Source of the DNA: an uncultured Candidatus Saccharibacteria bacterium
Lineage (GTDB): Bacteria; Patescibacteriota; Minisyncoccia; Phycocordibacterales; PALSA-1337
Direction: 5' to 3'
DNA length: 64,000 bases
Assembly: GCA_964358005.1 (NCBI GenBank)
Contig: CAYHNH010000003.1
Span: forward strand, 16,334 to 80,333
A program made the position numbers and the translations under genes. Positions 27,615 through 55,587 of this stretch are shown here, in pieces. Position 1 is the stretch's first letter, and each line of letters starts with the position of its first letter. The notes below the pieces were generated by a model, which saw only the letters and a list, made by a program, of their open reading frames with translations, had not been told where the DNA came from and searched no databases.

Positions 27615-28250
27615 TCAATCCTCGGGGTTCGACAGGGCGAGCTGCCACCAGTTCCTGGGGAGTGCCCCCATGAAGACGATATAACCGAGGCGTGAACGGG
27701 TGATTGAGTCACCTGCCACGATCCGGAAACCCGCCTTATGGGTATGGGCGACCTTGAACTTCTGTTCGTTGTCGGGGTTATAACTGACCGTCCGCTTCGG
27801 GAAGGTGTGGACGGCCTGGCCATCCACACAATACTGGAAGGGGACATTGTCCACGATGCCGACCTCGATCGAGTAACCTGCCGGCACGTCGATCTCCTCG
27901 ATCGTGCGACCTGTGCTGACCGTGAAGCTACCATACTTCAGGATCGGCGGCCGAGATGGCATGGCCGGAGCAGCATACGCCTGCGGCGTTTGCTGCTGAT
28001 AGGCCATGGCCGGCGGGGGTTGGAACTGTCCGCCCCCCTGCAGTGCCCGCTGGGCCTGCTGCGCCGCGGCCGCTTGCCGCTTCGCCGCCGCCTCTTCGCG
28101 CCGGGCCGCCTTGGCTTCCTCGACCTCCGCGTAGTTCACGCGAAAGCCATTGATGAGGACTCCCAGGAGGACCAGTGCCACGGCCCCGATCAGGAGCCAT
28201 TTCAACGTTTTCGGGTTCTGAGTTTTGTTGTTTTTTTTGTCTGCGCTCAT
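27615..28250 (-). CDS. hypothetical N-terminally membrane-anchored protein with Ala/Gln-rich linker
   Basis: TM helix WLLIGAVALVLLGVLI, then AKAARREEAAAKRQAAAAQQAQRA low-complexity stretch and a 110-aa C-terminal domain; G+C-rich. Its ATG overlaps the upstream gene stop (TAATG). Confidence 0.45.
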   Translation of the reverse strand: MSADKKNNKTQNPKTLKWLLIGAVALVLLGVLINGFRVNYAEVEEAKAARREEAAAKRQAAAAQQAQRALQGGGQFQPPPAMAYQQQTPQAYAAPAMPSRPPILKYGSFTVSTGRTIEEIDVPAGYSIEVGIVDNVPFQYCVDGQAVHTFPKRTVSYNPDNEQKFKVAHTHKAGFRIVAGDSITRSRLGYIVFMGALPRNWWQLALSNPED

Positions 28251-35940: not shown

Positions 35941-36045
35941 TTTATCAGTTCTGTTGAGATTGTGCATCAAAAAATAACTGGGAGCAAAAAATGCAGATAG
36001 GTGGAACAAGGGCAGGCGGGGGGTAAGGGTGTTCCAGTACAGGCC

Positions 36046-36113
36046 CTATATCATCTTTGATATAGGTTTTTCGCGTAAAACGACGAGAATTCCCTATATC
36101 ATATATGATATAG
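36046..36113. promoter_or_regulatory. two operator-like 8-4-8 inverted repeats CTATATCA-N4-TGATATAG spaced 48 bp apart
   Basis: ctatatcaTCTTtgatatag at 36046-36065 and ctatatcaTATAtgatatag at 36094-36113, in the divergent region between the XRE regulator (-) and the smc-like gene (+). Confidence 0.5.
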
Positions 36114-36232
36114 CCCACGGGAATGAGAACGTGTGCCCCCTGCCAGAAGCGCACACAACCAAACGCGGTGCTCCACATATTCACGCCCAATTTTCGACTT
36201 TTTACGCTACAATTAGGCGACATCCCAATAGA

Positions 36233-38536
36233 ATGTATCTAAAGTCCCTGGAATTATCGGGTTTCAAATCATTCGCCAAAAAGGCGAACCTTTCGTTTAC
36301 CTCGCCGATCACCGGCATCGTGGGACCAAACGGCTCTGGAAAGTCCAACATAGCCGAGGCCTTCAAGTTCGTCCTCGGCGAGCAGTCGATCAAATCCCTG
36401 CGCGGCAAGCGCGGCGAGGACATGATCTGGAACGGCGGCGGAGGCGACAGTGGACTGGCTAGTGGGAGCGGCGGTAGTGGTGGCGGCAGTGGCGGCGGAT
36501 CGCGAGCCAACCGCGCCAACATAAGGCTGACATTCGATAATTCACGCAGGATATTCCCGACCATAGATTTCGATGAAGTTACTCTCGAGCGCGTGGTGAA
36601 CCGCGATAACTCCAACGAATATCTCCTGAATGGCACGCAAGTTCGCCTGAAAGACATCATCGAGCTTTTGGCTGGTGCGCATATCGGTGCGACGGGCCAC
36701 CACATCATTTCCCAGGGCGAGGCTGACCGCATACTTACAGCCTCCATACGCGAGCGTCGCGAGATGATCGAGGATGCGCTCGGTCTCAAGATCTACCAGT
36801 GGAAGAAGCTCGAGAGCACCCGCAAACTGGAGCGGACCGAAGAGAATATGAAACAGGTTGAGTCGCTCCGCCGCGAGATCGCGCCTCACATAAAGTTTCT
36901 GAAGAAGCAGGTTGAAAAGATAGAGAAGTCGCGCGAGATGCGAGTAGAGCTGGTAAATCTGTATAAGGAGTATTTCGCCATAGAGGAAGCATATCTCGGA
37001 TCCGAAAAGAAGCGCCTGACAGACGAGCTCTCCGGTCCGAAAAAAGAACTGGGCGAACTCGAACGCGAGCTAGAGCGCGCCAAAGCCGTGCTCACAGCGG
37101 CCAAAGGCAAAGACGAGAAAAGCCATGAGGTCATAGAGATAGAGAGCCGTTTGGCCGCCATACGCGGAGAGAAGGATGACATCATGCGCGAGCTCGGTCG
37201 CATCGAGGGTGAGATCAACGCTGACCGCCGCGCCGTAGAGAAGGAGAAAGACAAGCTCAAGAAGGATGAATTCAAGACGGTCTACCTGAAGGACCTGGAG
37301 GACGTGGTGAAGACCGTTGAATCACTGAAGAGCATCGGCGACATCCTAGAGCTCCTGCGGACGTTCATAAAGAAGCACAGGGTAGCCAGCGATTCTAGCC
37401 TGATCGGTGAAGCCGAGAGGGAGATTGAAGGCCTGCTCAAGGATAAATCAAAGCATGACGACAAGCTCAGGGCATTGACGAGCTCCGAGCACAAGTTGCG
37501 CGCCGACTACGAGGCGCTCAAGAAGAACATAGAGAAGGAAAAGGACACCAACCGGGACGCCGAGAAGGATGTCTTCAGGATCATCGCCCGTCAGAATGAG
37601 ATACGCGGGGTCATCGCCGGGCTGACTTCAGCCATGAGTGTCGTCCAACATGACGAAGACAATTTCAAGAGAGAACTGGGAGAGGCCGGGAGCATAGCCG
37701 GCAGGGAGGCTGTCGAGTACGGCGGAGTTGAGGGGCTGGCGCTCGGAGCGGCTCTCATGAATGAGTCCAGTCGCCTTGCCCAGGAGGATCGCCGCAAGAA
37801 AATAGAGAGGATCAAGATCCGCCTCGAGGATTCCGGCCTTGGCGGCAGTGCCGAGGTGCTCAAGGAGTATAAGGAGACCGAGGAGCGCGATGCATTCTTG
37901 GCACGCGAGCTCGAGGATCTGGCTAAAGCCAAGGGCGAGCTCCACAAGCTCATAGCCGAGCTCGATGTCCGCATAGATGTAGAGTTCAAACAGGGCATCC
38001 TGAAGATCAACAATGAGTTCCACAAGTTCTTTACGCTGATGTTCGGCGGCGGTAAGGCGGAGCTTACGGTGGTCAGGGAGGTCAGACGCAAGAAGAAGTC
38101 AGACACCCTCGATCTGGCCGAAGTGCTTTCTGACTCCGAGATCGAGAATCCGGCAGACAAGGACGACCAGGAGGAAGGTCCGGAGGGTCTGGAGGTGAAC
38201 GTCAGTTTGCCGCGCAAGAAGGTGAAAGGTCTCATGATGCTCTCTGGCGGCGAGCGCGCGCTGACCTCGATCGCATTGCTGTTTGCGATCTCTCAGGTCA
38301 ATCCGCCGCCCTTCATCATTCTGGACGAGACTGACGCCGCGCTTGATGAGGCCAACTCACGCAAATATGGAGATATGATCGAAAGCCTTTCCAGGAATTC
38401 ACAGCTGATACTGATAACTCATAACCGCGAGACGATGTCACGCGCCGGAGTGCTTTACGGTGTAACAATGGGGGGTGATGGTGCGTCAAAGCTATTGTCC
38501 ATCGCATTCGAGGAGGCAGTAAAAGTGGCAAAGTAG
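36233..38536 (+). CDS. smc: SMC-family chromosome-segregation ATPase, shortened (about 767 aa) with Gly-rich insertion
   Basis: N-terminal Walker A (MYLKSLELSGFKSF...IVGPNGSGKSNI); long coiled-coil region; C-terminal signature and Walker B (LSGGERALTSIALLFAISQVNPPPFIILDETDAALD); GGGGDSGLASGSGGSGGGSGGGS insertion near the N-terminus. Confidence 0.7.
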   Translation: MYLKSLELSGFKSFAKKANLSFTSPITGIVGPNGSGKSNIAEAFKFVLGEQSIKSLRGKRGEDMIWNGGGGDSGLASGSGGSGGGSGGGSRANRANIRLTFDNSRRIFPTIDFDEVTLERVVNRDNSNEYLLNGTQVRLKDIIELLAGAHIGATGHHIISQGEADRILTASIRERREMIEDALGLKIYQWKKLESTRKLERTEENMKQVESLRREIAPHIKFLKKQVEKIEKSREMRVELVNLYKEYFAIEEAYLGSEKKRLTDELSGPKKELGELERELERAKAVLTAAKGKDEKSHEVIEIESRLAAIRGEKDDIMRELGRIEGEINADRRAVEKEKDKLKKDEFKTVYLKDLEDVVKTVESLKSIGDILELLRTFIKKHRVASDSSLIGEAEREIEGLLKDKSKHDDKLRALTSSEHKLRADYEALKKNIEKEKDTNRDAEKDVFRIIARQNEIRGVIAGLTSAMSVVQHDEDNFKRELGEAGSIAGREAVEYGGVEGLALGAALMNESSRLAQEDRRKKIERIKIRLEDSGLGGSAEVLKEYKETEERDAFLARELEDLAKAKGELHKLIAELDVRIDVEFKQGILKINNEFHKFFTLMFGGGKAELTVVREVRRKKKSDTLDLAEVLSDSEIENPADKDDQEEGPEGLEVNVSLPRKKVKGLMMLSGGERALTSIALLFAISQVNPPPFIILDETDAALDEANSRKYGDMIESLSRNSQLILITHNRETMSRAGVLYGVTMGGDGASKLLSIAFEEAVKVAK

Positions 38537-41889: not shown

Positions 41890-43083
41890 TTATTTGACGA
41901 TGACCCTCTTTAGTTGCTGAGGGATTTTCACTGCTATCTCATAAGCAATAGTCCCACAATTCTTGGCATGGGCTAATATGGAGTTAGGGTCATCCTTGCT
42001 ATCGCTCACCACAGTCACTGACATGCCGAGCTTCAGGCCGCAGACTCCTGGGACAGTGGAGGCATCTATAGTTGTTATGTTCATGCTGACCCGGCCGATG
42101 ATGGGGCAGATCACTTCGCTCCCGCCGCTCGCATCAAGCTTTGCATGATTTTGGATAATCACTTGAACGGCCCCTTTATTCGAGAGCCTGCGGTCGAGGC
42201 CCTCATAGTATCCGACGGGTATAGTAGCTATGCACATCTCGCGATCAGCCTTGAATGTATTGCCGTAACCGACAGTCTCGCCTGGTAGGAGAGTCTTCAA
42301 GCCTGTGATGATAGTCGTCATTTTGAGGACCGGTCGAAGGTCAAGCTTTTTATTCAGCACCGGATTTTCTGAGAGGCCGTAGAGGCCGATGCCGAGCCTG
42401 ATCACGTTGCCGCGTATGTCATCGCTAAACCTAGAGCCATCGGTCGCGGCCGCGTGGATGTACCATATGTTCGGAAAGGCAGTCTTGAATTCAGCTACCA
42501 CATCATTCCAATGCACGACCTGGGCTTCGGTGAACGACTCGTCGGCATTGTCGGCGTCGCTAAAATGAGTGCATATGCCCTCGAGTCTGATGCAGGGATT
42601 CTTCTCGAGCAGCTCTATCGCGTATCGGACCTCATCCATGAGGATGCCCTGGCGATGCATTCCAGTGTCTATCTTTATGTGCACATGCACGACCGATGCG
42701 ATATTCTTTATGGCCCTCAAGGTGTCAATGTTCGTTATGGTAAAGGAGGTGCGCTTGATGCTCGATTCCATGATCGTGCGCGGTCTGGTATAGCCGATGA
42801 TGAGCAGAGGGGTCTTGATGCCTCGGGCTCGCAGAGCCACAGCCTCGAAGTACGAATCGACGGCGATAAATGGGATTCGCTTGTCATGCCTTAGGATGTC
42901 GGCCACCTCGAATAGCCCGTGGCCGTAAGCGTTGCTCTTCAGCACTGGAGCGACGTAGCCATGGGGGATGAGTTTGCGGAATTCCTGTAGATTATGGAGC
43001 AGGCGCTCCCTGGAAATGGAAACAGCGATGAGGGGCTCATAGGGGAAGCGCTTCCTGGAGAGCCAGTTGAGGAGTCGTCTCAT
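41890..43083 (-). CDS. alr: alanine racemase
   Basis: PLP-lysine motif VAPVLKSNAYGHG near the N-terminus; TIM-barrel plus C-terminal beta domain; 397 aa. Confidence 0.8.
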   Translation of the reverse strand: MRRLLNWLSRKRFPYEPLIAVSISRERLLHNLQEFRKLIPHGYVAPVLKSNAYGHGLFEVADILRHDKRIPFIAVDSYFEAVALRARGIKTPLLIIGYTRPRTIMESSIKRTSFTITNIDTLRAIKNIASVVHVHIKIDTGMHRQGILMDEVRYAIELLEKNPCIRLEGICTHFSDADNADESFTEAQVVHWNDVVAEFKTAFPNIWYIHAAATDGSRFSDDIRGNVIRLGIGLYGLSENPVLNKKLDLRPVLKMTTIITGLKTLLPGETVGYGNTFKADREMCIATIPVGYYEGLDRRLSNKGAVQVIIQNHAKLDASGGSEVICPIIGRVSMNITTIDASTVPGVCGLKLGMSVTVVSDSKDDPNSILAHAKNCGTIAYEIAVKIPQQLKRVIVK

Positions 43084-43140
43084 ATTTGCATTATGTCCCG
43101 AAATCCGCTATATTACAACCTCGATAAATAAGATAAAAAC

Positions 43141-43296
43141 ATGTCCCAGGACCAGCTAATACAGATCAGAAACAAGGAGACCGGCGAGGTCTATTTTACG
43201 CGCAAGAACAAGAAGAAAGTCGAGCGCAAGATCGAGCTCAAGAAATACAGTGCCAAGCTCCGTAAGCATATTACTTTCAAGGAAGCGAAGAAATAA
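43141..43296 (+). CDS. rpmG: 50S ribosomal protein L33
   Basis: 51-aa product MSQDQLIQIRNKETGEVYFTRKNKKKVERKIELKKYSAKLRKHITFKEAKK matches the L33 pattern (YTT.KNKRN.P.RLELKKY.P..RKH..H.E.K). Below the ORF-track cutoff and found by eye. Confidence 0.7.
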   Translation: MSQDQLIQIRNKETGEVYFTRKNKKKVERKIELKKYSAKLRKHITFKEAKK

Positions 43297-43461
43297 ACAA
43301 TAGGTACAAGGGAATATCCGTGTTTCTGAGAGAACTTACTCTTCGGGACACGGATATTTTCCTGCTGGAAAATTCCTCGTGCTCGCCTACCCGGCTCGCA
43401 AGGTCCCTCAGAATAAGTTCTCTCACAAACACTTCTTTGCTATACTCACAAAGTTCCTTAA

Positions 43462-43532
43462 GGGCGATTAGTTTAATGGTAGAACAGTTCTCTCCAAAAG
43501 AACTGGTGGGGGTTCGATTCCTCCATCGCCCG
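43462..43532 (+). tRNA. tRNA-Trp (anticodon CCA)
   Basis: Acceptor GGGCGAT/ATCGCCC, anticodon stem-loop GTTCT-CTCCAAA-AGAAC, T-loop TTCGATT; 71 nt. Confidence 0.85.
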
Positions 43533-43575
43533 CAGATTTTGGCCTAAATATGTTATCCCCAGGGATCTCTTGCCA

Positions 43576-43593
43576 GGTGAACGATAGTTCACC
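43576..43593. promoter_or_regulatory. perfect 18-bp palindrome GGTGAAC-GATA-GTTCACC (Cheo-box-type SOS operator, GAAC-N4-GTTC)
   Basis: Seen directly at 43576-43593, about 250 bp upstream of lexA and about 40 bp upstream of a small ORF; matches the Gram-positive/Cheo-type LexA box core. Confidence 0.55.
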
Positions 43594-43630
43594 TATACTA
43601 TATCCATTAGAGGTTAACTATCAAATACCC

Positions 43631-43837
43631 ATGAGCAAGCATCAATTAGTCAGGTCCCTTCGTTCGGAGATCAAGAAGCTTAATAGGATCATAGACCGCA
43701 AGATCATGCTCGGTCTGCCATATAGCGATGACAGTCGCCGCCACAAATTCCTGGTGTTACAGCTCAAACGTCTGACACCAGCGAGGATTGGCTGGTTCAG
43801 CAGATCCATGAGCTTCGTTTCGATATTCATGCTCTAA
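43631..43837 (+). CDS. small basic hypothetical protein (68 aa) between the SOS box and lexA
   Basis: ATG 43631, MSKHQLVRSLRSEIKKLNRIIDRK...; could be spurious, but it lies between an SOS-like operator and lexA in the same orientation. Confidence 0.25.
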   Translation: MSKHQLVRSLRSEIKKLNRIIDRKIMLGLPYSDDSRRHKFLVLQLKRLTPARIGWFSRSMSFVSIFML

Positions 43838-43844
43838 TAGACCC

Positions 43845-44408
43845 ATGGATTCATACAAGGATAAGATCTTGGGCTTCTACTCATCACGCAAGCGCATGCC
43901 GAGCTATGCGGAGATTATGAAGCTAGTGGGCTTCAAGTCAAAGAATGCCGTCTACAAGCTCATAGAGAATCTGGTGGAGCAGGGCGTAGTGATCAAGGAT
44001 GCCACTGGCCGTCTCATACCGACCAAGCTTATGGATGAAGTCCCTCTCCTCGGCCTCGTGGAAGCAGGATTTCCTTCGGAAGCAGATGCACAGACGCTCG
44101 ATACCATAGACGTCAATGAATATCTCTTCGAACACAAGGAGTCATCGTATCTATTGCGCGTGAAAGGCGACTCCATGATCGAGGCTGGCATACATGAGGG
44201 CGATATGGTCATAGCGGAACGCGGCCGCGCTGCCAAGCCGGGTGACATAGTCATAGCGTGCGTGGATGGGGCCTGGACCATGAAATATCTGCGCACAAAA
44301 GCCGGCAAGAATTACCTCGAGCCAGCCAATAAGAGGTATAAGCCTATCTATCCCGAGACGGCATTGGAAATAGCGGCTGTGGTGAAGGGTGTGGTGAGGA
44401 AGTATTGA
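43845..44408 (+). CDS. lexA: LexA repressor (S24 peptidase)
   Basis: N-terminal LexA-type winged HTH (MPSYAEIMKLVGFKSKNAVYKLIENLVEQGVV); cleavage-site/peptidase segment VKGDSMIEAGIHEGDMVIAERG with the catalytic Ser in GDSM and the catalytic Lys. Confidence 0.85.
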   Translation: MDSYKDKILGFYSSRKRMPSYAEIMKLVGFKSKNAVYKLIENLVEQGVVIKDATGRLIPTKLMDEVPLLGLVEAGFPSEADAQTLDTIDVNEYLFEHKESSYLLRVKGDSMIEAGIHEGDMVIAERGRAAKPGDIVIACVDGAWTMKYLRTKAGKNYLEPANKRYKPIYPETALEIAAVVKGVVRKY

Positions 44409-44501
44409 GCGCCTTGCCTTTTGTCGTGGTAATAGTAATATGCGGCCAGATAATTGAAATAGTCACAGCATCAACAACCCCGCTAGGGAGGAGTTCATCT
44501 C

Positions 44502-45791
44502 ATGATCTACATAGGTACCCCCGTAGCCATGAAGGAGCTCCTTCATGGCACCAGTTGCTATATAACCGAGGTGACGATCACCTCTCGCGATTCGAACAAG
44601 TTCAGTGGCCGCCTCACGCTAGAGGACAGCTCTACTGCCAGCGACGAGAGCCATATCTGGATGGCGACCTACGCTCAAGGGACTGGTTGGATGGTTACAG
44701 GGGACGGCGTCAAGCTGTCCAATGGCGAACGAATCAGATCTACAAAAACCTACCCGTTCTCCCTCAAGTCTGCTATCAATGATGGCGTGAGGGGATTCCT
44801 CTCCGAGTGGTTGGCCAAGAACAGGAGCATTATCCACGAGCGCAAAGGGCCGGAAGCGGCAGAAACGCCTGCTCCGCCCCCGCCTCCTCCAGCTCCATCA
44901 AGCAACGGCTCGTCGCCCAAGGGCATCGAGATCGTCGAGGTCCTGCTCGCTGAGGTCATCCCGTTCGAGGGCCAACCTCGGTTAGAGTGGTCGGAATCCG
45001 ATCATCTCGACATGGTCAATGGCTTGAAGCAGGACGGCCAGAAGCAGCTCATAATCGTCACTCCCATCACCGGTATTCCAGGCAAGCGCTGGAAGCTCGT
45101 GGATGGAGAGCGGCGTTTCCGCGGCGGCCTCGCTGCAGGAAAGCAGAAGATGTTCGCCATTGTCCGGCGCTACGCTTCTGAAAAGGAGATGTTCTGGGAC
45201 TCTCTGACGATGAACATGCATCGCCGCGGGCACACTCCTTACGAATGTGTGCGCGATATCGGCAGGGCCATGCGCGACGGCAAGACGGTGCAGGAGATCT
45301 GCATCGGCACCGGGCTCTCCGACTGTGCGGTCTACCAATTCCTCCAGATGCAAAGGCTCGAGCCGTCGCTCTTGGAGCTACTGCGTCTGTCTGTCCCGAA
45401 GAAGGACCGACTGAGCGTGGAGTCTGCCAAGAAGCTCTCCCGTGTGCCTGACCAGAAGGAGCAGCTGCGCATCTGGGGCATCGCCAAGAAGGAGAGCACC
45501 CCGAGCCTTCGGAAGCTCAAGGTGGATGAGCTGACTGCGCCGATACTGCATAGCCTCCCGGTAAAAGGTCGCGTCCGCAAGCCTAGCGATAATGCGGTTC
45601 GGCTGTTGAGGGTCCTACAGAACCTCGAGGCTGGCGTCGCGTTCATCGAGAGGGCTACGGATGCCGATCTCAGGGCCTTTGCGACCTGCGCAAGGTCGAC
45701 GACGGTCAATACCAGCGACCTCCTGAAGCGGTTGAATGTTGCAACGAGAGGCTGGAACTCATTCAGGGACAAGGTGGTCAAGGTGGCTTGA
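44502..45791 (+). CDS. ParB/Srx-like N-terminal (nuclease) domain protein, 429 aa, G+C-rich
   Basis: Central ParB-N motif LIIVTPITGIPGKRWKLVDGERRFRG; unknown N-terminal 150 aa and a Pro-rich linker (PAPPPPPPAPSS); GGGAGGAG RBS 7 nt upstream of the ATG; 94 bp downstream of lexA. Confidence 0.55.
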   Translation: MIYIGTPVAMKELLHGTSCYITEVTITSRDSNKFSGRLTLEDSSTASDESHIWMATYAQGTGWMVTGDGVKLSNGERIRSTKTYPFSLKSAINDGVRGFLSEWLAKNRSIIHERKGPEAAETPAPPPPPPAPSSNGSSPKGIEIVEVLLAEVIPFEGQPRLEWSESDHLDMVNGLKQDGQKQLIIVTPITGIPGKRWKLVDGERRFRGGLAAGKQKMFAIVRRYASEKEMFWDSLTMNMHRRGHTPYECVRDIGRAMRDGKTVQEICIGTGLSDCAVYQFLQMQRLEPSLLELLRLSVPKKDRLSVESAKKLSRVPDQKEQLRIWGIAKKESTPSLRKLKVDELTAPILHSLPVKGRVRKPSDNAVRLLRVLQNLEAGVAFIERATDADLRAFATCARSTTVNTSDLLKRLNVATRGWNSFRDKVVKVA

Positions 45792-45934
45792 AGACCTCCA
45801 TGATCGCCACGGGGCGGAAGCAATTCCGCCCTTTTTTGATTCATGTCTGGGAATAGCAAATATCAATACAACAAAAATCGCAGGTGAGGGCCTGCGATCG
45901 ACGGATGGAGCACCGGTCGGTGCTGTAAGGGGAG

Positions 45935-46204
45935 TCATGATTCCGTGCCCCGTGGATTTAGGAGCAGTTCGACCTCGTAGGCACGGGCCGGTTCGAACCG
46001 GACGCTCCCCGGCTGTAGTGTTTCGATGCTGTCGCGATGAATGAGGAGATCGAGCACTTGGGCATCAGTCATCGCCTCTCCGTTGGCCCGGTTTACGAAA
46101 CCATCGGCGCCGAAGGACAATTCCATTCTCGGCAGAAACTCGAGGATATATCCCCGGCCTGCGACAGTGAAGATACGCTCTGGGACATTCGTTGGATTAG
46201 CCAT
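45935..46204 (-). CDS. hypothetical small protein (low confidence)
   Basis: ORF with ATG at 46204 (MANPTNVPERIF...); no domain; may be non-coding. Confidence 0.2.
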   Translation of the reverse strand: MANPTNVPERIFTVAGRGYILEFLPRMELSFGADGFVNRANGEAMTDAQVLDLLIHRDSIETLQPGSVRFEPARAYEVELLLNPRGTES

Positions 46205-46759
46205 AAATTGATCTGTACACAATGCTACATATTGCCAATCGTCTCGTCAATGCGTAGGAATTTTCAATATAAATAAAAGAGCGCGTAACCAACCCATGTC
46301 GGTTACGCGCCCACAACTCAACCCCTTAGAGGCAGAGACCGGACCCCCGAAGGGCGACCGGGCTTTCGTGATGGTGACCACCAACGTCGACGCCTTGCGT
46401 CGCGGTCGGTGGATAGCATCCTTATTACTCCAGTGCGACTGATGACTAACCGTCAAACCGTCTGACGGCTCGCGCTTCATGTGGAGCACCGACTGTCCTT
46501 CCCGTGGTCACGGGATCCAGTACCGAGAAGCATCGGTACCCTTATCGGAAACGCGGTTCCAGCGGGGCCAATCGAGTGGTCCCAACGCGCGTTCCATGCT
46601 GGCCTCGATCTGGCAGAATGCCGTGAATACAAGGCCAATATGGAACGCGCGATACACGTGGAGTGACTCAATGAACGTTATGTGGGTAGTATACCACGCA
46701 GGAATGATTTGTCAAGTCCGTGTGTGGGGCATAAATTCGTTGTACGATAAGGCAACTCT

Positions 46760-47365
46760 ATGCCAACTGAATTAACAGCAATTTTTGGAGTTCTATCTGG
46801 AATCGCAGTCCTAATCGGTGGCATCCCATATCTCCGAGACATTCACCTAAATAGAGCACAGCCTCATATATTGAGCTGGTTGGGCTGGACCTTTATCACT
46901 GCTCTCGGTGCCAGCGCGATGCAGGCTGAAGGCAGCACTTGGGTGGTCGGAATACTGTGGGCGAATGCGCTCAATTCCTTCCTGATAGCGGCGTACTCGG
47001 CTATTAAGAAAACTGGTGTCTGGTCGACTGGTATCTATGATTATATTTTTTTCGGGCTAGGCGTCATGGGACTAGTCCTGTGGCAGGTTTTGGATATGCC
47101 TGTCCTGGCGATTATCTGTGCCATTGCAGCTGACTTGTCGTTTGGCATTCCGACGATCATAAAATCATACAAGAATCCGGGATCAGAAACATTCTTTGTG
47201 TGGCTAATGTCCTCTGTTTCTGGTTTTCTTAGCTTGCTTGCTATCCAGCAATTCGTTTTCCATGAGGTGGCATATCCACTATATTTGTTTATTTATGACA
47301 CTATAGTCATGCTACTAGTATTGAAAATAATTCACAGACCAGGCCGTGGTCTCGTTCAGAAATAA
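46760..47365 (+). CDS. polytopic membrane protein (6 predicted helices), low-G+C
   Basis: 201 aa, highly hydrophobic (IFGVLSGIAVLIGGIPYL; VVGILWANALNSFLIAAYSAI; ...); no family recognised. Confidence 0.45.
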   Translation: MPTELTAIFGVLSGIAVLIGGIPYLRDIHLNRAQPHILSWLGWTFITALGASAMQAEGSTWVVGILWANALNSFLIAAYSAIKKTGVWSTGIYDYIFFGLGVMGLVLWQVLDMPVLAIICAIAADLSFGIPTIIKSYKNPGSETFFVWLMSSVSGFLSLLAIQQFVFHEVAYPLYLFIYDTIVMLLVLKIIHRPGRGLVQK

Positions 47366-47369
47366 TTTC

Positions 47370-48683
47370 ATGCCTGACATCGACCTATACAACAAATCTC
47401 CCGAATCATACGATGATCTCCAACACATGCGCCCGGACTATGTCGGTGCGCAAAAGGCGTTTATAGATCTGGCGGTACAACATTTGAACGGCAAACAGAA
47501 TATCTCTGTCGCTGATTTCTGCTGCGGCACAGGTCAAGACACCAAAACGCTCGCCGGACATGTGAAGATTGATAAGGCCACGCTCATAGACATAAACAAG
47601 GACTTTTTGAGAATTGCTAAGGAGAAGGACATTGGAGTTCACAATATCGTGACGATTTGCTCTGACATTCTGGAGGCTGACGTGTCAGCGAATAATGATC
47701 TAGTCATCTCGATGTTCGCCTATCACCATGTTCCAAATAATAGGAAGGCTGATTATCTAAAGAAGGCGAAGGAGGCTCTTAAGCCTGGCGGCCTGCTTCT
47801 TCTAGGTGAGATATTCATGCAGAGTAAGGCGGATACGTTGAAGTACTATGAGGATTTGATCGCTTCGATTCCCGGATCGAAGGATAATCCTGCTTTGGTC
47901 AGTTTTCTAAGGCAGACTGCGCAAAGCGATGATTTTGAATTTAAAGTCTCCAAGGAGTATGCCTACAATCAACTAAAAGAGGCAGGTTTTTCTCTGGTTG
48001 AGTCGAAAAAGATATGGCCCCTCGATGGCAGTTTGTCGGCTGATGATGGGACATTTGTGGAGGTTTGGAAATCAAATATTACGAAATTGTTTCTAACATC
48101 TGCAGGTTTTACTAACTCTGAAACTACAGATATTTTGATGGAAGAGATCCCAAAGCAGGCCGAATTGTGTAAGGTTTTGATGATTAGCTGCACCCAGGAT
48201 GAGACTGAGGAATCCTATGTGAATGAGTCCAAGAATGAGCTTCGATCACTCGGTTTCAAGGACATAAAGGTTCTTGATCTGCACAAACCGATGAAGCCTG
48301 ATCCTGCCGACATTGTGTATGTCTGTGGCGGCAATACTTTTGCGATCCTGCAGAAAATGAAAGAAACGGGTGTCGATAAATTTATAATTGATTCAGTGAA
48401 TAAGGGTGCCTTGTACATAGGCGTTTCCGCGGGAAGCATTATGGCTGGCAAGACCATCGAGATTGCCGGATGGGGCTCGACCGGAGACAAGAATGAGGTC
48501 GGCCTCAAGGATCTCACTGGCTTCGGTTTTACTGACGTAGCAGTTTTTCCTCATTATCAGACTTCACAAAAAGATGAGGTCGCGGAATTCAAGAAGAGGG
48601 CCACTTATCCGGTTATTGAAATTACCGACAATCAGATGGTGTTTGTGAGGGATAATAAAGCAAAAAAGATAGGGAGATTTTAA
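47370..48683 (+). CDS. fusion protein: class I SAM-dependent methyltransferase (N-terminal) plus peptidase S51/dipeptidase-E-like domain (C-terminal)
   Basis: N-terminal VADFCCGTGQDTKTLAGH (motif I) ...LLLGEIFMQS; C-terminal IVYVCGGNTFAILQKMKETG...IGVSAGSIMAG (GGNTF plus nucleophile-elbow serine typical of the S51 family). Start at ATG 47370 (track start is GTG 47346). Confidence 0.5.
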   Translation: MPDIDLYNKSPESYDDLQHMRPDYVGAQKAFIDLAVQHLNGKQNISVADFCCGTGQDTKTLAGHVKIDKATLIDINKDFLRIAKEKDIGVHNIVTICSDILEADVSANNDLVISMFAYHHVPNNRKADYLKKAKEALKPGGLLLLGEIFMQSKADTLKYYEDLIASIPGSKDNPALVSFLRQTAQSDDFEFKVSKEYAYNQLKEAGFSLVESKKIWPLDGSLSADDGTFVEVWKSNITKLFLTSAGFTNSETTDILMEEIPKQAELCKVLMISCTQDETEESYVNESKNELRSLGFKDIKVLDLHKPMKPDPADIVYVCGGNTFAILQKMKETGVDKFIIDSVNKGALYIGVSAGSIMAGKTIEIAGWGSTGDKNEVGLKDLTGFGFTDVAVFPHYQTSQKDEVAEFKKRATYPVIEITDNQMVFVRDNKAKKIGRF

Positions 48684-48720
48684 AGTGGACATAAATCCGA
48701 TTTGGAGTAATATTTAAGCC

Positions 48721-49251
48721 ATGTCCGTCACCCTCATCTTCGAAGCTCACGGCACGACATTCGACAACGAAGCTCATCTCTCGTCGGGCTGGAATGACGT
48801 GGCTCTGTCGCCATTGGGCGAGCGGCAATCGCGAGAGATGGGCGAGCGCTACAAGGACGACCATTTCGACGCCATATTCTGCTCGGACCTACAGCGCGCC
48901 TACAAGAGCGCCGAGATCGGATTTGGGGACAAATGGCCGATCATCCGCGACGCCCGATTACGAGAATGCAACTACGGCGACTTGACCCAGAGCCCGAGCG
49001 AAATAGTCGACAGGGAAAAGCCGCAGAGGATACATACGCCATTCCCGAACGGGGAGAGCTATATGCAGACCAATGTCCGTATGAAGTCATTCCTGGATGA
49101 TTTGAAGCGCGATTACAATGGCAAGCGCGTCATGGTCATCGGTCATCGCGCGACCCAGTATGGCATCCAGAACATCGTCGAAGGCACGCCGTACGAGAAG
49201 CTCACCACCACGCATTTCAAATGGCAGCCAGGGTGGGGGTATGAGGTGTAA
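48721..49251 (+). CDS. histidine phosphatase (phosphoglycerate-mutase-like) family protein
   Basis: N-terminal LIFEAHGTTFDNEA (RHG-type catalytic His motif variant) ...GWNDVALSPLGERQSREMGERY; 176 aa. Confidence 0.55.
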   Translation: MSVTLIFEAHGTTFDNEAHLSSGWNDVALSPLGERQSREMGERYKDDHFDAIFCSDLQRAYKSAEIGFGDKWPIIRDARLRECNYGDLTQSPSEIVDREKPQRIHTPFPNGESYMQTNVRMKSFLDDLKRDYNGKRVMVIGHRATQYGIQNIVEGTPYEKLTTTHFKWQPGWGYEV

Positions 49252-49263
49252 AGCATAATTTTC

Positions 49264-49950
49264 ATGGAAAATATAAAAGAAGACGGAACAATTAATAAAG
49301 AAAGGAAAGTGCCTTGTTCAGAATGTGCATCCAAAACTTATCACAAGGTCTTAAAATCGATTAATTATCTTGAATCTGGGGACTGGGGAATTACATGGGG
49401 TAATTATGAAATAATTATATGTCAGGGATGTAGATATATTTCCTTTAGAAAAGTTTTAGGGACTGATGATGTAATTGGACAAGATGAGGAGGGAAATTTC
49501 ATATACGAGGAGGAAGAGGAGTTGTTCCCTCCAAGATTGAGTGGAAGGAAAGAGCTTGAGGATAATAGGTTTTTGCCCTTGGATGTCGGAAGAGTATATC
49601 GTGAGACCTATCGTGCTATTAATGGCGAACAACCGATTCTCGCCGGAATGGGAATCAGGGCGTTGGTTGAAGCTGTATGTGTTGAAGAAAAAATAAAGGG
49701 TAGAAACTTGGAGAAAAGGATTGATAACCTAGTTGAAGCTGATTTACTTACCAAGAAAGGCGCTGAAATTCTTCAGCAAATTAGGCTTTATGGTAATGAT
49801 GCGGCTCACGAAGCAAAAGCGGCAAAGATTGAGGATCTGGGGGTCCTAATGGATATAGCCGAAAACCTTCTACACAATACATACCTACTTAAGATAGGGG
49901 TAGCAAAGCTAGAAAAAGTAAAAAGTAAGCCTAAAGAGGCTAAGAAATAG
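49264..49950 (+). CDS. DUF4145-domain protein with N-terminal Cys4 zinc-ribbon-like region
   Basis: CSEC...CQGC N-terminal pairs; C-terminal DUF4145 signature (KRIDNLVEADLLTKKGAEILQQIRLYGNDAAHEAKAAKIEDLGVLMDIAENLL). Confidence 0.5.
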   Translation: MENIKEDGTINKERKVPCSECASKTYHKVLKSINYLESGDWGITWGNYEIIICQGCRYISFRKVLGTDDVIGQDEEGNFIYEEEEELFPPRLSGRKELEDNRFLPLDVGRVYRETYRAINGEQPILAGMGIRALVEAVCVEEKIKGRNLEKRIDNLVEADLLTKKGAEILQQIRLYGNDAAHEAKAAKIEDLGVLMDIAENLLHNTYLLKIGVAKLEKVKSKPKEAKK

Positions 49951-49999
49951 AACCCTGGTTTGCCTGGTATTGACTTTAAAATTAGGCTACAATTAGTCT

Positions 50000-50602
50000 A
50001 TGGACATACAGAGGGCACAGCAAGCAGCTTTGTATTTTGCATCTAGCGTAAGCGATCTATATCTGGTTAAGCTTATGAAGCTTTTCTATTATCTAGATTT
50101 CATTTCTGTAAGAGAGACAGGTAAATCTGTCACAAATGATACTTATTTTCATTTGCCATACGGACCAATACCGAGCTTTATAAAGGATAATATTGATTCT
50201 CTAGATTCTGGTATTAAGGCGGAGGAGGTAAAAATACTTGATCCAAATCAAACCGGTACCCCGGTGTGGTTAAAGATTTCTAGTATATTTGACGGGGTTC
50301 TCGAGTTAAACACTAGGGGGAAAGGTAAAATTGCCAAAGTGGTTAATGGTCAGGCTTTTGATAGTAATAAAATTTCTGAATATGAAAAGAATCTCTTGGC
50401 CGATATTGTCAGAGATCTTGGAAATAAAACAGTGCAGGAAATTGTTAATATGACGCACTCTGAACCACCTTATGCACAAACCTCACCTAGTCAGGCAATT
50501 CCATATGATCTTGCATTTCAATTAGATGTAAGGCAGATATTGCCAAGTAGGACTGTAGTTTTCGATAAGGAAATTGCCTTCTCAAGATTTGTTTCATCCT
50601 AA
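50000..50602 (+). CDS. Panacea (DUF4065/SocA-like) domain protein, candidate type II antitoxin
   Basis: KLMKLFYYLDFISVRETGKSVTNDTYFHLPYGPIPSF matches the DUF4065/Panacea core (KLqKLLYyaDf....G..itg..y.a...GPV). Confidence 0.6.
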   Translation: MDIQRAQQAALYFASSVSDLYLVKLMKLFYYLDFISVRETGKSVTNDTYFHLPYGPIPSFIKDNIDSLDSGIKAEEVKILDPNQTGTPVWLKISSIFDGVLELNTRGKGKIAKVVNGQAFDSNKISEYEKNLLADIVRDLGNKTVQEIVNMTHSEPPYAQTSPSQAIPYDLAFQLDVRQILPSRTVVFDKEIAFSRFVSS

Positions 50603-50608
50603 TATGTT

Positions 50609-51058
50609 ATGCCTCCAGTAAAGTTTGGTGAAATTTATTTTAAAAGAGGCCAACTCAAAAACAAGCTTAGTGGATCTTCCGATGGTCACTACGTGGTTGT
50701 GCTAGGAGTCGATACAAAAGCAAACTCAATTTTGTATCAGACTCTGGAATCGGGCCTTAATAAAGTATTTTTATATCCAAACTCGCCCAAGGCCCCGTTC
50801 ATTGATGTTGATACAGTTTCCTTTATTAACTATAGAAAATATTTAAATTTATTACATAAAGACACATGTATTATGATGCATTATGGAGTAGATACAGAGT
50901 CCTTGCCAGTGTTTCTATCTCCTAAATATGTTAAGAAGGGTATATTGAGTGATCATAATAAAAAAGCATTAATGATTAGTATAATTCCGGCTAGAGGATA
51001 TAGATTATCTGTACAAGAGTCATTACTGATAAATTATGCTTACCAAAATTATAAATGA
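50609..51058 (+). CDS. candidate toxin partner of the Panacea-domain gene (possible PemK/MazF-like fold)
   Basis: Starts 7 nt after the Panacea gene stop. N-terminal GEIYFKRGQL...DGHYVVVLGVD resembles the G(D/E)I(W/Y).V.....G.E....RP.vVv pattern of PemK/MazF/CcdB-fold toxins; weak. Confidence 0.35.
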   Translation: MPPVKFGEIYFKRGQLKNKLSGSSDGHYVVVLGVDTKANSILYQTLESGLNKVFLYPNSPKAPFIDVDTVSFINYRKYLNLLHKDTCIMMHYGVDTESLPVFLSPKYVKKGILSDHNKKALMISIIPARGYRLSVQESLLINYAYQNYK

Positions 51059-51070
51059 TGTTTTAAGGCC

Positions 51071-51652
51071 ATGAACAATAAACTTATTGGTACTATCATT
51101 ATAGTCGCCATTGCATTGATTGGGGCATATTATATTGGCCAAAATTCAAAGGGTCCTGTTCAGGAGCCTCTTCCTATTAAGACTGAAGCGAATTATATTG
51201 TGCCGACTCCAGTTGCCAAAAAAAATCCCGCCAATCAATCCGCTAAGACGAGTATTGAGTTATCGGAGAACCCAGAGTATTTGTTTAGTAAGAATTTTGA
51301 TCCCAGCCTTGTAAAGGTGTATGGAGTAGGAGTTGGAGATTATCAGAGTAAAATCGACCCTTCATCAGTTGTAGAAGGCGTGGAATATTTTGGTTGGATT
51401 CATACTACAAATAAAATTGGATATCGAATTGCCGACAATAAAGTTGTGGAGATTTCATTAAACAGTTCTGTGCTCGCCCGGATGGGTATTTTTCGTCAGG
51501 ATGAGATTATTATTAGATTTGGTAAGCCAGATCAGACCAACGAGTCTGGAAATTCACCATACAAGACATTTAAATACTACTATATCAATAAAGGCTTGGT
51601 TGTTTCCTACTACGAAACTGGTGGTTTGGCGGTAAATATAATTGATAATTAA
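51071..51652 (+). CDS. hypothetical N-terminally membrane-anchored protein
   Basis: TM helix LIGTIIIVAIALIGAYYI then a 165-aa soluble domain; low G+C. Confidence 0.35.
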   Translation: MNNKLIGTIIIVAIALIGAYYIGQNSKGPVQEPLPIKTEANYIVPTPVAKKNPANQSAKTSIELSENPEYLFSKNFDPSLVKVYGVGVGDYQSKIDPSSVVEGVEYFGWIHTTNKIGYRIADNKVVEISLNSSVLARMGIFRQDEIIIRFGKPDQTNESGNSPYKTFKYYYINKGLVVSYYETGGLAVNIIDN

Positions 51653-54627: not shown

Positions 54628-55587
54628 ATGTCTACCGGCTACGTAAATAACGCTGTCTTCTGGGTGGAGATCGAAAAGATCGCGCCCAACCCGTACCAGC
54701 CGCGCCGTGAATTCGATGTCGACAAATTGCGTGACCTCGCTGACTCCATAAAGATGTACGGGGTGTTGCAGCCCCTTACTGTGAGCCGCAAAGAGGTATA
54801 TCGCGCGGACGGTGGCATGAATGTCGAGTATGAGCTCATCTCCGGTGAGCGTCGTTTGCGCGCTTCGAAGCTCGCCGGCCTGTCGCAGGTGCCTGTGCTC
54901 ATCAGAACTGGCGAGGATGATGGCCGGGTCAAGCTCGAACTCGCCATCATCGAGAATCTCCAACGCGAGGATCTAAACCCGATCGACCGAGCACGCTCGT
55001 TTGAGCGTTTGGCTAAGGAATTTAAACTCAAGCAGATCGAGATTGCCGAGAAGGTCGGCAAAAGCAGGGAGTATGTCTCCAATTCTGTCCGCATTCTTTC
55101 ATTGCCTGATGAGATGATCACTGCTCTCGAGGAAGGTAAGATATCCGAGGGACATACGAGACCCCTCCTCATGCTCATCGACCGGCCGGAGGAGCAGATC
55201 GTCCTATTCAAGGAGATCATGATGAAGAAGCTCACAGTGCGTGAAGCAGAGTCGTTGTCGCGCCGGGTAGCAACGGAGAAGATACGCAACAAAACGAAAT
55301 ATCTCGATCCGGCTATCATTGAAATGGAAAAGAACTTTACGGAATCGCTTGGCACACGAGTCCGTATCGAAAAGAACAAGGAAGGAGGCACTGTGACGAT
55401 CGACTTCTTCAGCCCTGATGACCTGCGGGCGCTGCTCGAGAAGCTCAATAAGACTGAGGCAGTGGTAGCGGCCATGCCGGCAGTCGCAGTTAGCGAAGAC
55501 CAAAAGCCCATGGATGACCGAGCGCCTGCGGATGTAGTCAAGGAAGACAATACGGAGCTGTATTCTCTGAAGAATTTTTCACTGTAA
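54628..55587 (+). CDS. parB: chromosome partitioning protein ParB/Spo0J
   Basis: ParB-N box (YELISGERRLRASKLAGLSQVPVLIR), HTH and C-terminal dimerisation region; no parA adjacent in this window. Confidence 0.85.
   Translation: MSTGYVNNAVFWVEIEKIAPNPYQPRREFDVDKLRDLADSIKMYGVLQPLTVSRKEVYRADGGMNVEYELISGERRLRASKLAGLSQVPVLIRTGEDDGRVKLELAIIENLQREDLNPIDRARSFERLAKEFKLKQIEIAEKVGKSREYVSNSVRILSLPDEMITALEEGKISEGHTRPLLMLIDRPEEQIVLFKEIMMKKLTVREAESLSRRVATEKIRNKTKYLDPAIIEMEKNFTESLGTRVRIEKNKEGGTVTIDFFSPDDLRALLEKLNKTEAVVAAMPAVAVSEDQKPMDDRAPADVVKEDNTELYSLKNFSL

Follow-up and report, generated by a model that had tools for sequence, protein, structure and literature searches.

Why would a bacterial chromosome that already encodes a canonical ParB carry a second gene with a ParB fold, and does this gene belong to the lexA operon behind which it lies? 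These questions are raised by an open reading frame (ORF) at positions 44502–45791 of a 64,000-nucleotide stretch of contig CAYHNH010000003.1, assigned to an uncultured Candidatus Saccharibacteria bacterium (the whole stretch is referred to here as the window). A preliminary description of the locus took its product for a ParB/Srx-nuclease-domain protein, proposed that its expression is damage-inducible as part of a lexA operon, and considered a mobile-element or defence context. The analysis presented here points elsewhere: the gene is probably an orphan paralog of ParB, native to the chromosome and inherited vertically, and its product is most likely a Noc/KorB-like DNA clamp or regulator that is gated by a nucleoside triphosphate (NTP) and possesses a novel effector domain. 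These statements are put forward jointly and with moderate confidence.

The ParB-type core and its flanking regions

Pfam analysis identified a ParB_N domain at residues 147–239 of the ParB-like protein (E 1e-9; 38.8 bits against a cutoff of 26.3). The sequence DGERRFRGG is present in it, bearing out the ParB N-terminal domain with a GERRxRG motif of the preliminary description. An alignment to TIGR00180 covers residues 145–305, with a score of 52.6 bits that lies under the cutoff of 58.45. The profile of the family matches Spo0J of Thermus (PDB accession no. 1vz0, E 2.4e-27), Noc (7nfu, 5.4e-23) and KorB (8qa8, 1.1e-15), as well as the ParB proteins of M. xanthus and B. subtilis, and these alignments span both the CTPase (cytidine triphosphatase) fold and the helix-turn-helix (HTH) domain. 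Foldseek analysis with the AlphaFold2 model gave ParB, Noc and KorB structures as ranks 1–29, over 200–235 aligned columns; the best template modelling (TM) scores were 0.68 for the KorB–KorA complex (8qa9) and 0.64 for apo Noc (7nfu). The Pfam model HTH_ParB was not matched in the ParB-like protein, while it was matched in family members P0017 and P0027. The close family shows no variation at residues Q158, P159, R160, G202, E203, R204, R205, N238 and R241, and most residues of Boxes I to III stay invariant over 21 divergent members.

Residues ~143–350 are thus predicted, by profile comparison and by the structural model, to form a complete ParB/Noc/KorB-type core consisting of the CTPase fold and the HTH, and the same evidence places the protein in the ParB-CTPase/HTH superfamily. 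The label "nuclease" was not sustained, as the ParB fold is joined to a ParB-type HTH and neither an HNH nor any other enzymatic domain was identified by Pfam in the protein.

The core is preceded by a domain of 112 residues that is covered by confident AlphaFold2 models and is predicted to fold separately, hanging on a flexible, Pro-rich tether. Sequence relatives of this domain were found neither in Pfam nor by profile search of the PDB. It bears a resemblance, and only that, to TULIP/BPI-like domains (those of Der p 7, Mdm12/Mmm1 SMP, CETP, BPI, OrfX and YceB): its size is ~60% that of a TULIP domain, sequence identity is 5–14%, and in comparison with TULIP proteins Foldseek gave no significant match and no relation was seen at the level of sequence. 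At the other end of the protein, AlphaFold2 predicts a three-helix region at residues 361–428, which is conserved, basic and common to relatives of ~300 residues that lack the N-terminal domain. Residues 352–429 are presumed to be a dimerisation region; this C-terminal region has no match in Pfam or the PDB.

These flanks had been called unrelated to the ParB domain, with a profile search suggested for them. Residues 1–112 and ~352–429 do lack detectable relatives outside the family, in Pfam and the PDB alike; residues ~241–350, which had been counted among the unrelated sequence, are the ParB HTH and match Spo0J, Noc and KorB.

A word-index search recovered ~8 full-length homologs, one of which is labelled Candidatus Paceibacterota. 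One conserved peptide pattern, when searched over 185,579 species-representative genomes, gave two matches, both in groundwater Parcubacteria/Paceibacterota metagenome-assembled genomes, and the window matches a contig of the Hainich groundwater metagenome. An exhaustive hidden Markov model search returned 518 representatives at E ≤1e-30, falling into three groups. In the first are at least 15 further clusters (50% identity) in which the architecture is complete, down to the motifs of the N-terminal domain (W-x-A-x-Y...G-x-W and YPFS-x-D..VN-x-G-x-R...WLN). The second consists of proteins of ~300 residues that possess the core and the C-terminus without the N-terminal domain, and the third of members with other N-termini. 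Among the latter is P0090, a protein of 925 residues in which a SNF2/ResIII helicase is fused to a ParB_N and HTH_ParB core closely related to that of the family. The full architecture has so far been found only in metagenomic assemblies, and every taxonomically labelled member belongs to the Parcubacteria/Paceibacterota of the candidate phyla radiation (CPR).

Comparison with known systems and a possible mode of action

Noc of Bacillus and Geobacillus (7nfu, 7ng0, 7ol9) is, like the ParB-like protein, a chromosomal orphan paralog found beside a canonical ParB; both possess the CTPase fold and the HTH, and both carry an N-terminal effector element ahead of the CTPase fold. This element of Noc is described as binding the membrane under the control of cytidine triphosphate (CTP) (PMC8429893). 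The effector of Noc is a short amphipathic helix, whereas that of the ParB-like protein is a folded, beta-rich domain of 112 residues on a linker of 30 residues. The two proteins differ further in C-terminus and in phylum, and for the ParB-like protein no repeated site resembling the Noc-binding site (NBS) was seen. As its score for TIGR04285, the Noc equivalog, is 31.4 bits against a cutoff of 315, it is not considered a Noc ortholog; its scores also lie far under the cutoffs of the RepB and PRTRC equivalogs.

KorB of plasmid RK2 (8qa8, 8qa9, 1r71) has the ParB-CTPase fold and the HTH in common with the ParB-like protein and gave the best TM score of the Foldseek comparison. It has been described as a CTP-dependent sliding clamp and repressor with a role that is regulatory and not purely segregational (PMC11790492). 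KorB is plasmid-borne and works with KorA, whereas the ParB-like gene is chromosomal, encodes a different N-terminal domain and has no conserved partner gene; the Pfam KorB domain was not matched in its product. KorB also partners the ParA-type protein IncC and has an SH3-like C-terminal domain.

With canonical ParB/Spo0J (represented in the window by the protein encoded at 54628–55587, and by structures 1vz0, 6sdk and 7bm8) the ParB-like protein shares the CTPase and HTH core and Boxes I to III, and the best profile match was to 1vz0. Unlike canonical ParB, it has no ParB_C domain, ParA-binding motif or parAB operon, and it possesses an extra N-terminal domain and a distinct helical C-terminus. 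Sulfiredoxin, SerK, SbnI and stand-alone ParB/Srx enzymes have only the nucleotide-binding fold of ~90 residues in common with it. Stand-alone proteins of the ParB/Srx fold, without HTH or dimerisation regions, are ATP-dependent enzymes (PMC12704722). A stand-alone enzyme of the Srx type was considered for the ParB-like protein and rejected, since an HTH is present and the match to sulfiredoxin is marginal (Foldseek ranks 39–50, 82–90 residues, E ≥3e-3, TMq 0.16).

Orphan ParBs with lineage-specific fusions are common (PMC12704722), and roles other than partition are known for the CTP switches Noc and KorB (PMC12704722; PMC8429893; PMC11790492). At the position of the N-terminal domain, canonical ParB carries a ParA-binding peptide and Noc a membrane-targeting helix (PMC12704722; PMC8429893), and it is from this correspondence that we infer a role as output module for the domain. 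LexA, SOS and Patescibacteria are not mentioned in the orphan-ParB survey PMC12704722. The domain survey therein is based on Pfam, and the N-terminal domain, which has no Pfam model, would therefore not be named there.

The ParB-like protein would then act in a manner resembling Noc or KorB, and neither as a nuclease nor in partition. Through the HTH, a dimer would load at a specific palindrome in the DNA. Once a nucleotide is bound, probably CTP, an N-terminal gate would shut and so convert the protein into a DNA clamp, while the tethered N-terminal domain would be the output module, engaging a protein or a membrane/lipid partner.

Transcription unit, chromosomal position and alternative explanations

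The ORF and its strong ribosome-binding site (RBS) downstream of lexA were confirmed as first described, except that the spacer to lexA measures 93 bp and not 94 bp. One public gene call starts at the ATG at 44529; the start at 44502 is preferred, as alignment showed the first nine residues to be conserved in homologs. The features of the locus are collected in Table 1.

Table 1. Features of the ParB-like gene and its surroundings, in window coordinates
Feature	Position	Strand	Remarks
tRNA-Trp(CCA)	43462..43533	+	ARAGORN; Rfam tRNA 67.5 bits; synteny anchor
lexA-operon promoter TTGCCA-18-TATACT	43570..43599	+	Promoter scan; LexA operator between -35 and -10
LexA operator AGGTGAAC-GATA-GTTCACCT	43575-43594		20-bp palindrome; block invariant across three lineages
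68-aa ORF, first gene of lexA unit	43631..43837	+	53-62% identity in L001, L004; independently called in public annotations
lexA (S24 autopeptidase repressor)	43845..44408	+	TIGR00498 112.6 bits vs cutoff 110.95; Peptidase_S24 E 2.3e-26
Promoter-like element TTGCCT-N16-TAATAT	44414..44441	+	Predicted promoter; starts 6 nt past lexA stop codon
Shine-Dalgarno (SD) sequence GGGAGGAG	44486..44493	+	8 nt ahead of ATG; AGGAG block conserved in homolog alignment
ParB-like ORF	44502..45791	+	429 aa; AlphaFold2 mean predicted local distance difference test (pLDDT) 82.3
N-terminal domain, aa 1-112	44502..44837	+	Predicted five-stranded beta-meander and long helix; W53, A55, W63, P85, F86 conserved; family-specific
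Perfect 24-bp palindrome GCCATGAAGGAG/CTCCTTCATGGC	44526..44549	.	Codons 9-16 of ParB-like gene
Disordered Pro-rich linker, aa 113-142	44838..44927	+	pLDDT <50 at residues 112-140; length variable among homologs
ParB-CTPase fold, aa 143-240	44928..45221	+	Predicted; Box I GQPR 157-160, Box II GERR 202-205, Box III MNMHR 237-241
ParB-type HTH DNA-binding domain, aa 241-351	45222..45554	+	Predicted; TIGR00180 to aa 305; profile matches; Foldseek TM 0.64-0.68
Basic helical C-terminal region, aa 352-429	45555..45788	+	Isoelectric point ~11; opens with conserved GR-x-RKPSD motif
Intrinsic terminator, stem GGGCGGAA	45811..45840	+	GNRA loop GCAA, T-run; hairpin conserved, specific to ParB-like gene
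Canonical ParB	54628-55587		ParB_N, HTH_ParB, ParB_C; 20% identical to ParB-like protein

The gene appears to form a transcription unit of its own with conserved 5' and 3' signals, the promoter part of which is inferred. An element TTGC(C/T)T-N16/17-TA(A/G)TAT is kept ahead of the gene in seven loci, namely the window and the homologous loci L012, L007, L001, L004, L017 and L018, and it stands at equal distance from the start codon also in L012 and L007, where lexA is missing. By chance, 0.07 matches to the pattern would be expected in the window, which has one. At the other end, an intrinsic terminator is located directly 3' of the gene in all ten loci. The same hairpin, GGCGGAA-G(C)(A/G)A-TTCCGCC, with a core of 18 nt and located 17–21 nt past the stop codon, was identified in the window, L001, L004 and L007, while L017 has a compensated variant (GGTGGGA-GTAA-TTCCACC) and L001 possesses a second copy 5' of the gene (L001 5871–5900 and 7359–7390, L004 5982–6010, L007 2468–2498, L017 ~1819–1845). 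The stem is 100% paired with three covarying pairs, a score that none of 500 shuffles reach. The hairpin is single-copy in the 64-kb window and was found only at ends of the ParB-like gene. As its loops (GCAA, GCGA and GUAA) are all of the GNRA type, selection at the level of RNA is favoured; an Rfam search over 43000–47000 gave the tRNA only. The hairpin was also observed to be near-identical among loci although the adjacent proteins are ~45% identical, which is unusual for a terminator, and it is possible that it doubles as a DNA site.

The upstream gene order ClpB, alr, L33 and tRNA-Trp is common to the window, L001, L004, L007 and L012; in L007 and L012 the ParB-like gene comes straight after tRNA-Trp or an antisense gene, without lexA. 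The same position after alr-L33-tRNA-Trp was seen in at least five lineages, with proteins that are 40–56% identical, and such a shared chromosomal position in diverged lineages indicates vertical descent. The neighbourhood of the orthologs, on which a choice between phage, plasmid and chromosome had been made to depend, is thus one of chromosomal synteny upstream. Correlation of codon usage with pooled host genes is 0.89 for the ParB-like gene, 0.87 for the canonical parB and 0.92 for topA. The G+C content of the gene does exceed that of lexA, as had been stated (0.585 against 0.518, the latter also being the value for the window), and corresponds to the 96th percentile of 1290-bp windows; the maximum elsewhere in the window is 0.66, and the ClpB gene of the host, at 0.551, is likewise above the window mean. 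A conserved downstream partner gene was not found, as the window and L017 are without the gene that L001 and L007 have in common. This homologous gene (L001 7500–8219 and L007 2671–3354; 239 and 227 aa, 50% identical, no Pfam match) lies directly downstream in both loci. The closest homolog, P0002, has a partial ORF of 100 aa located 87 bp upstream.

The proximity of lexA allows the explanation that the gene belongs to the lexA operon and is under SOS control. It would then share a transcript with lexA and the 68-aa ORF, driven from the LexA-repressed promoter, and act after DNA damage, for example as a Noc-like checkpoint or nucleoid organiser. The lexA gene is on the same strand 93 bp upstream, the spacer contains no terminator and its RNA structure is unremarkable (z = -0.15), and the promoter of the operon carries a conserved LexA operator. 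Context is available for ten distinct loci; three of these (the window, L001 and L004) have lexA at ~0.1–0.7 kb upstream of the gene. The LexA orthologs are 71–79% identical, with cleavage site A74-G75 and catalytic residues S110 and K147 invariant, and L001, L004 and their duplicates carry the GAAC-N4-GTTC core of the operator unchanged, a core of the Gram-positive ("Cheo box") type; searched as an exact 16-mer, the operator has no second match in the window. However, this operator is found only before the 68-aa ORF and lexA: no LexA box (GAAC-N4-GTTC, ≤2 mismatches) was identified in 44280–44540 or upstream of the homologs, and the ParB-like gene has its own conserved promoter-like element, which is present also in loci without lexA. 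The ParB-like gene of L001 is set apart from lexA by a NUDIX gene as well as a terminator, in L004 a gap of 474 bp containing an antisense ORF and a hairpin follows lexA, and the remaining seven loci (L007, L012, L017, L018, L015, L008 and L011) have no lexA beside the gene. The adjacency is local synteny within one subclade, and membership of an SOS-regulated operon is considered unlikely. What stands of the damage-inducible operon proposed earlier is that, owing to the terminator-free spacer, read-through from the lexA promoter is possible in the window and could make expression in this genome damage-inducible to some extent. The SOS network of Patescibacteria has been the subject of a comparative study (Sanchez-Osuna et al. 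2017, PMID 28618189; cited in PMC8565304).

Less likely again is that the protein is a second partition ParB, serving a chromosome or plasmid with a ParA encoded elsewhere, as any ParA must be given that the window has no parA for either ParB. The full ParB core agrees with such a role, as does the name "ParB/RepB/Spo0J family partition protein" in one public source. Against it, the protein lacks the LG(R/K)GL ParA-binding motif, and the usual site of ParA-binding peptides is taken by a folded domain of 112 residues; it falls below the TIGR00180 cutoff, and far below those for Noc, RepB and PRTRC. No ORF with a ParA deviant Walker A motif and no canonical parS with ≤3 mismatches were found in the 64-kb window. 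Independent transcription together with homologs that are housekeeping partition proteins paired with ParA had been named as the finding that would refute the preliminary description; no parA was found in the neighbouring genes of any of the ten homologous loci. A canonical ParB with a ParB_C domain is already encoded in the window, at the position first given for it. Because of the missing ParA and ParA-binding motif, the TIGR00180 score and the lack of ParB_C, the ParB-like protein is judged from its sequence not to be a canonical partition ParB, in agreement with its original description as a ParB-fold protein that is not canonical and differs from the housekeeping ParB.

The explanation to which least weight is given, and which we consider very improbable, is that of a mobile element integrated at tRNA-Trp, with the gene coding for a nuclease of the ParB/Srx type or for a protein of defence or anti-defence. 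A tRNA gene is indeed adjacent, the G+C content is over the window mean, and ~1 kb downstream begins an island of low G+C that encodes a Panacea-type antitoxin domain. ParB-CTPase folds are moreover often linked to mobile elements (PMC12704722). Yet PADLOC gave no match for the gene or its neighbours, the sole PHROG matches are to "ParB-like partition protein", and neither a nuclease domain nor an integrase was found. A search for an att-like repeat of tRNA-Trp was negative, the gene has the codon usage of its host, the position after alr-L33-tRNA-Trp is conserved, and a convergent ORF and terminators set the island apart from the gene. On these grounds the mobile-element and defence context suggested initially was rejected.

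Several points weigh against the preferred explanation, that of an orphan ParB paralog acting as an NTP-gated clamp or regulator. The Box III glutamate (ENLQR), which the canonical ParB of the window retains, is replaced by Met in the ParB-like protein and by Met, Ala or Gln across the family, and NTP hydrolysis may therefore be slow or absent; the basis for this expectation is provided by E-to-Q mutants of ParB. The ParB_C model (PF23552), which has a match in the canonical ParB of the window, has none in the ParB-like protein, and comparison of the C-termini of the two proteins by hhalign gave a probability of 6.9%. It is by its conservation that the element at 44414–44441 is taken for a promoter. 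ATP or GTP is the ligand of some ParB-CTPase folds, and nucleotide specificity is not reliably predicted by sequence analysis or AlphaFold3 (PMC12704722). A loading site is likewise not apparent among the palindromes of the gene: the 24-bp palindrome was rejected as a conserved parS-like site, as L012 keeps only its outer 8+8 arms and L001, L004 and L007 lack it altogether, while the 18-nt palindrome at 45813–45830 behaves like a GNRA-loop RNA terminator rather than a loading site. No recurring palindrome family or NBS-like repeated site was found in the window. The 24-bp palindrome is nevertheless the longest in the window, where it is unique, and exceeds any in 200 shuffles; an SD-like AAGGAG and the complementary sequence occur within it, and in the minimum free energy fold the RBS of the gene pairs with the CUCCUUC half.

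Neighbouring features and significance

The canonical ParB of the window also lacks the LG(R/K)GL motif and an adjacent parA, and its gene lies between a tRNA-Leu/miaA pair and an ORF. The island downstream of the ParB-like gene occupies 46760–51650 and is characterised by low G+C (0.36–0.45) and a codon usage unlike that of host genes (r = 0.10–0.24). It codes for a membrane protein of 201 aa, a methyltransferase-Peptidase_S51 fusion (47346–48683), a DUF4145 protein (49264–49950) and a SocA/Panacea antitoxin-domain protein (50000–50602), and was probably acquired horizontally. The 68-aa ORF of the lexA unit (MSKHQLVRSLRSEIKK...GWFSRSMSFVSIFML) is located directly behind the LexA operator, possesses a hydrophobic C-terminal tail and is also present, together with that operator (window 43570–43837), at L001 4470–4757 and L004 3315–3598. 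It has no match in Pfam, PHROG or PADLOC; speculatively, it may be an SOS-induced small protein such as a cell-division inhibitor of the YneA/SosA type. A second GAAC-N4-GTTC, at 27756, was considered as a LexA site and rejected, as it lies among ORFs without Pfam match and is within chance expectation. A perfect AT-rich palindrome of 20 bp (CTATATCATATATGATATAG) is found at 36094–36113, just inside the listed GTG start of the ORF 36029–38536, and would be upstream of that gene only if the true start lies further downstream than the GTG.

A more specific proposal goes beyond the clamp or regulator favoured here: the family would be a CPR-specific analogue of Noc whose TULIP-like N-terminal domain binds a membrane lipid or a division/envelope protein, whose expression is boosted after damage by read-through in the lexA-linked subclade, and for which the palindromes at the ends of the gene are loading sites. 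Taken in full it is improbable, about on a par with the partition explanation. If true, it would mean that the nucleoid is coupled to the envelope in ultra-small bacteria and would reveal a damage-responsive nucleoid-occlusion device.

Few ParB-CTPase switches with roles other than partition have been characterised, these being Noc, KorB, VirB and PadC, while the many orphan ParBs that carry lineage-specific fusions have for the most part not been studied (PMC12704722). The family of the ParB-like protein adds to these a well-defined architecture, represented by more than 20 clusters (50% identity) and including a confidently folded N-terminal domain without a described relative. It has at present no bearing on SOS biology or phage defence, and represents a tractable target for work in vitro. 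As members of the CPR are uncultured and have minimal genomes, the retention of a second switch of the ParB type hints that its part in regulation or in organising the nucleoid is an important one.

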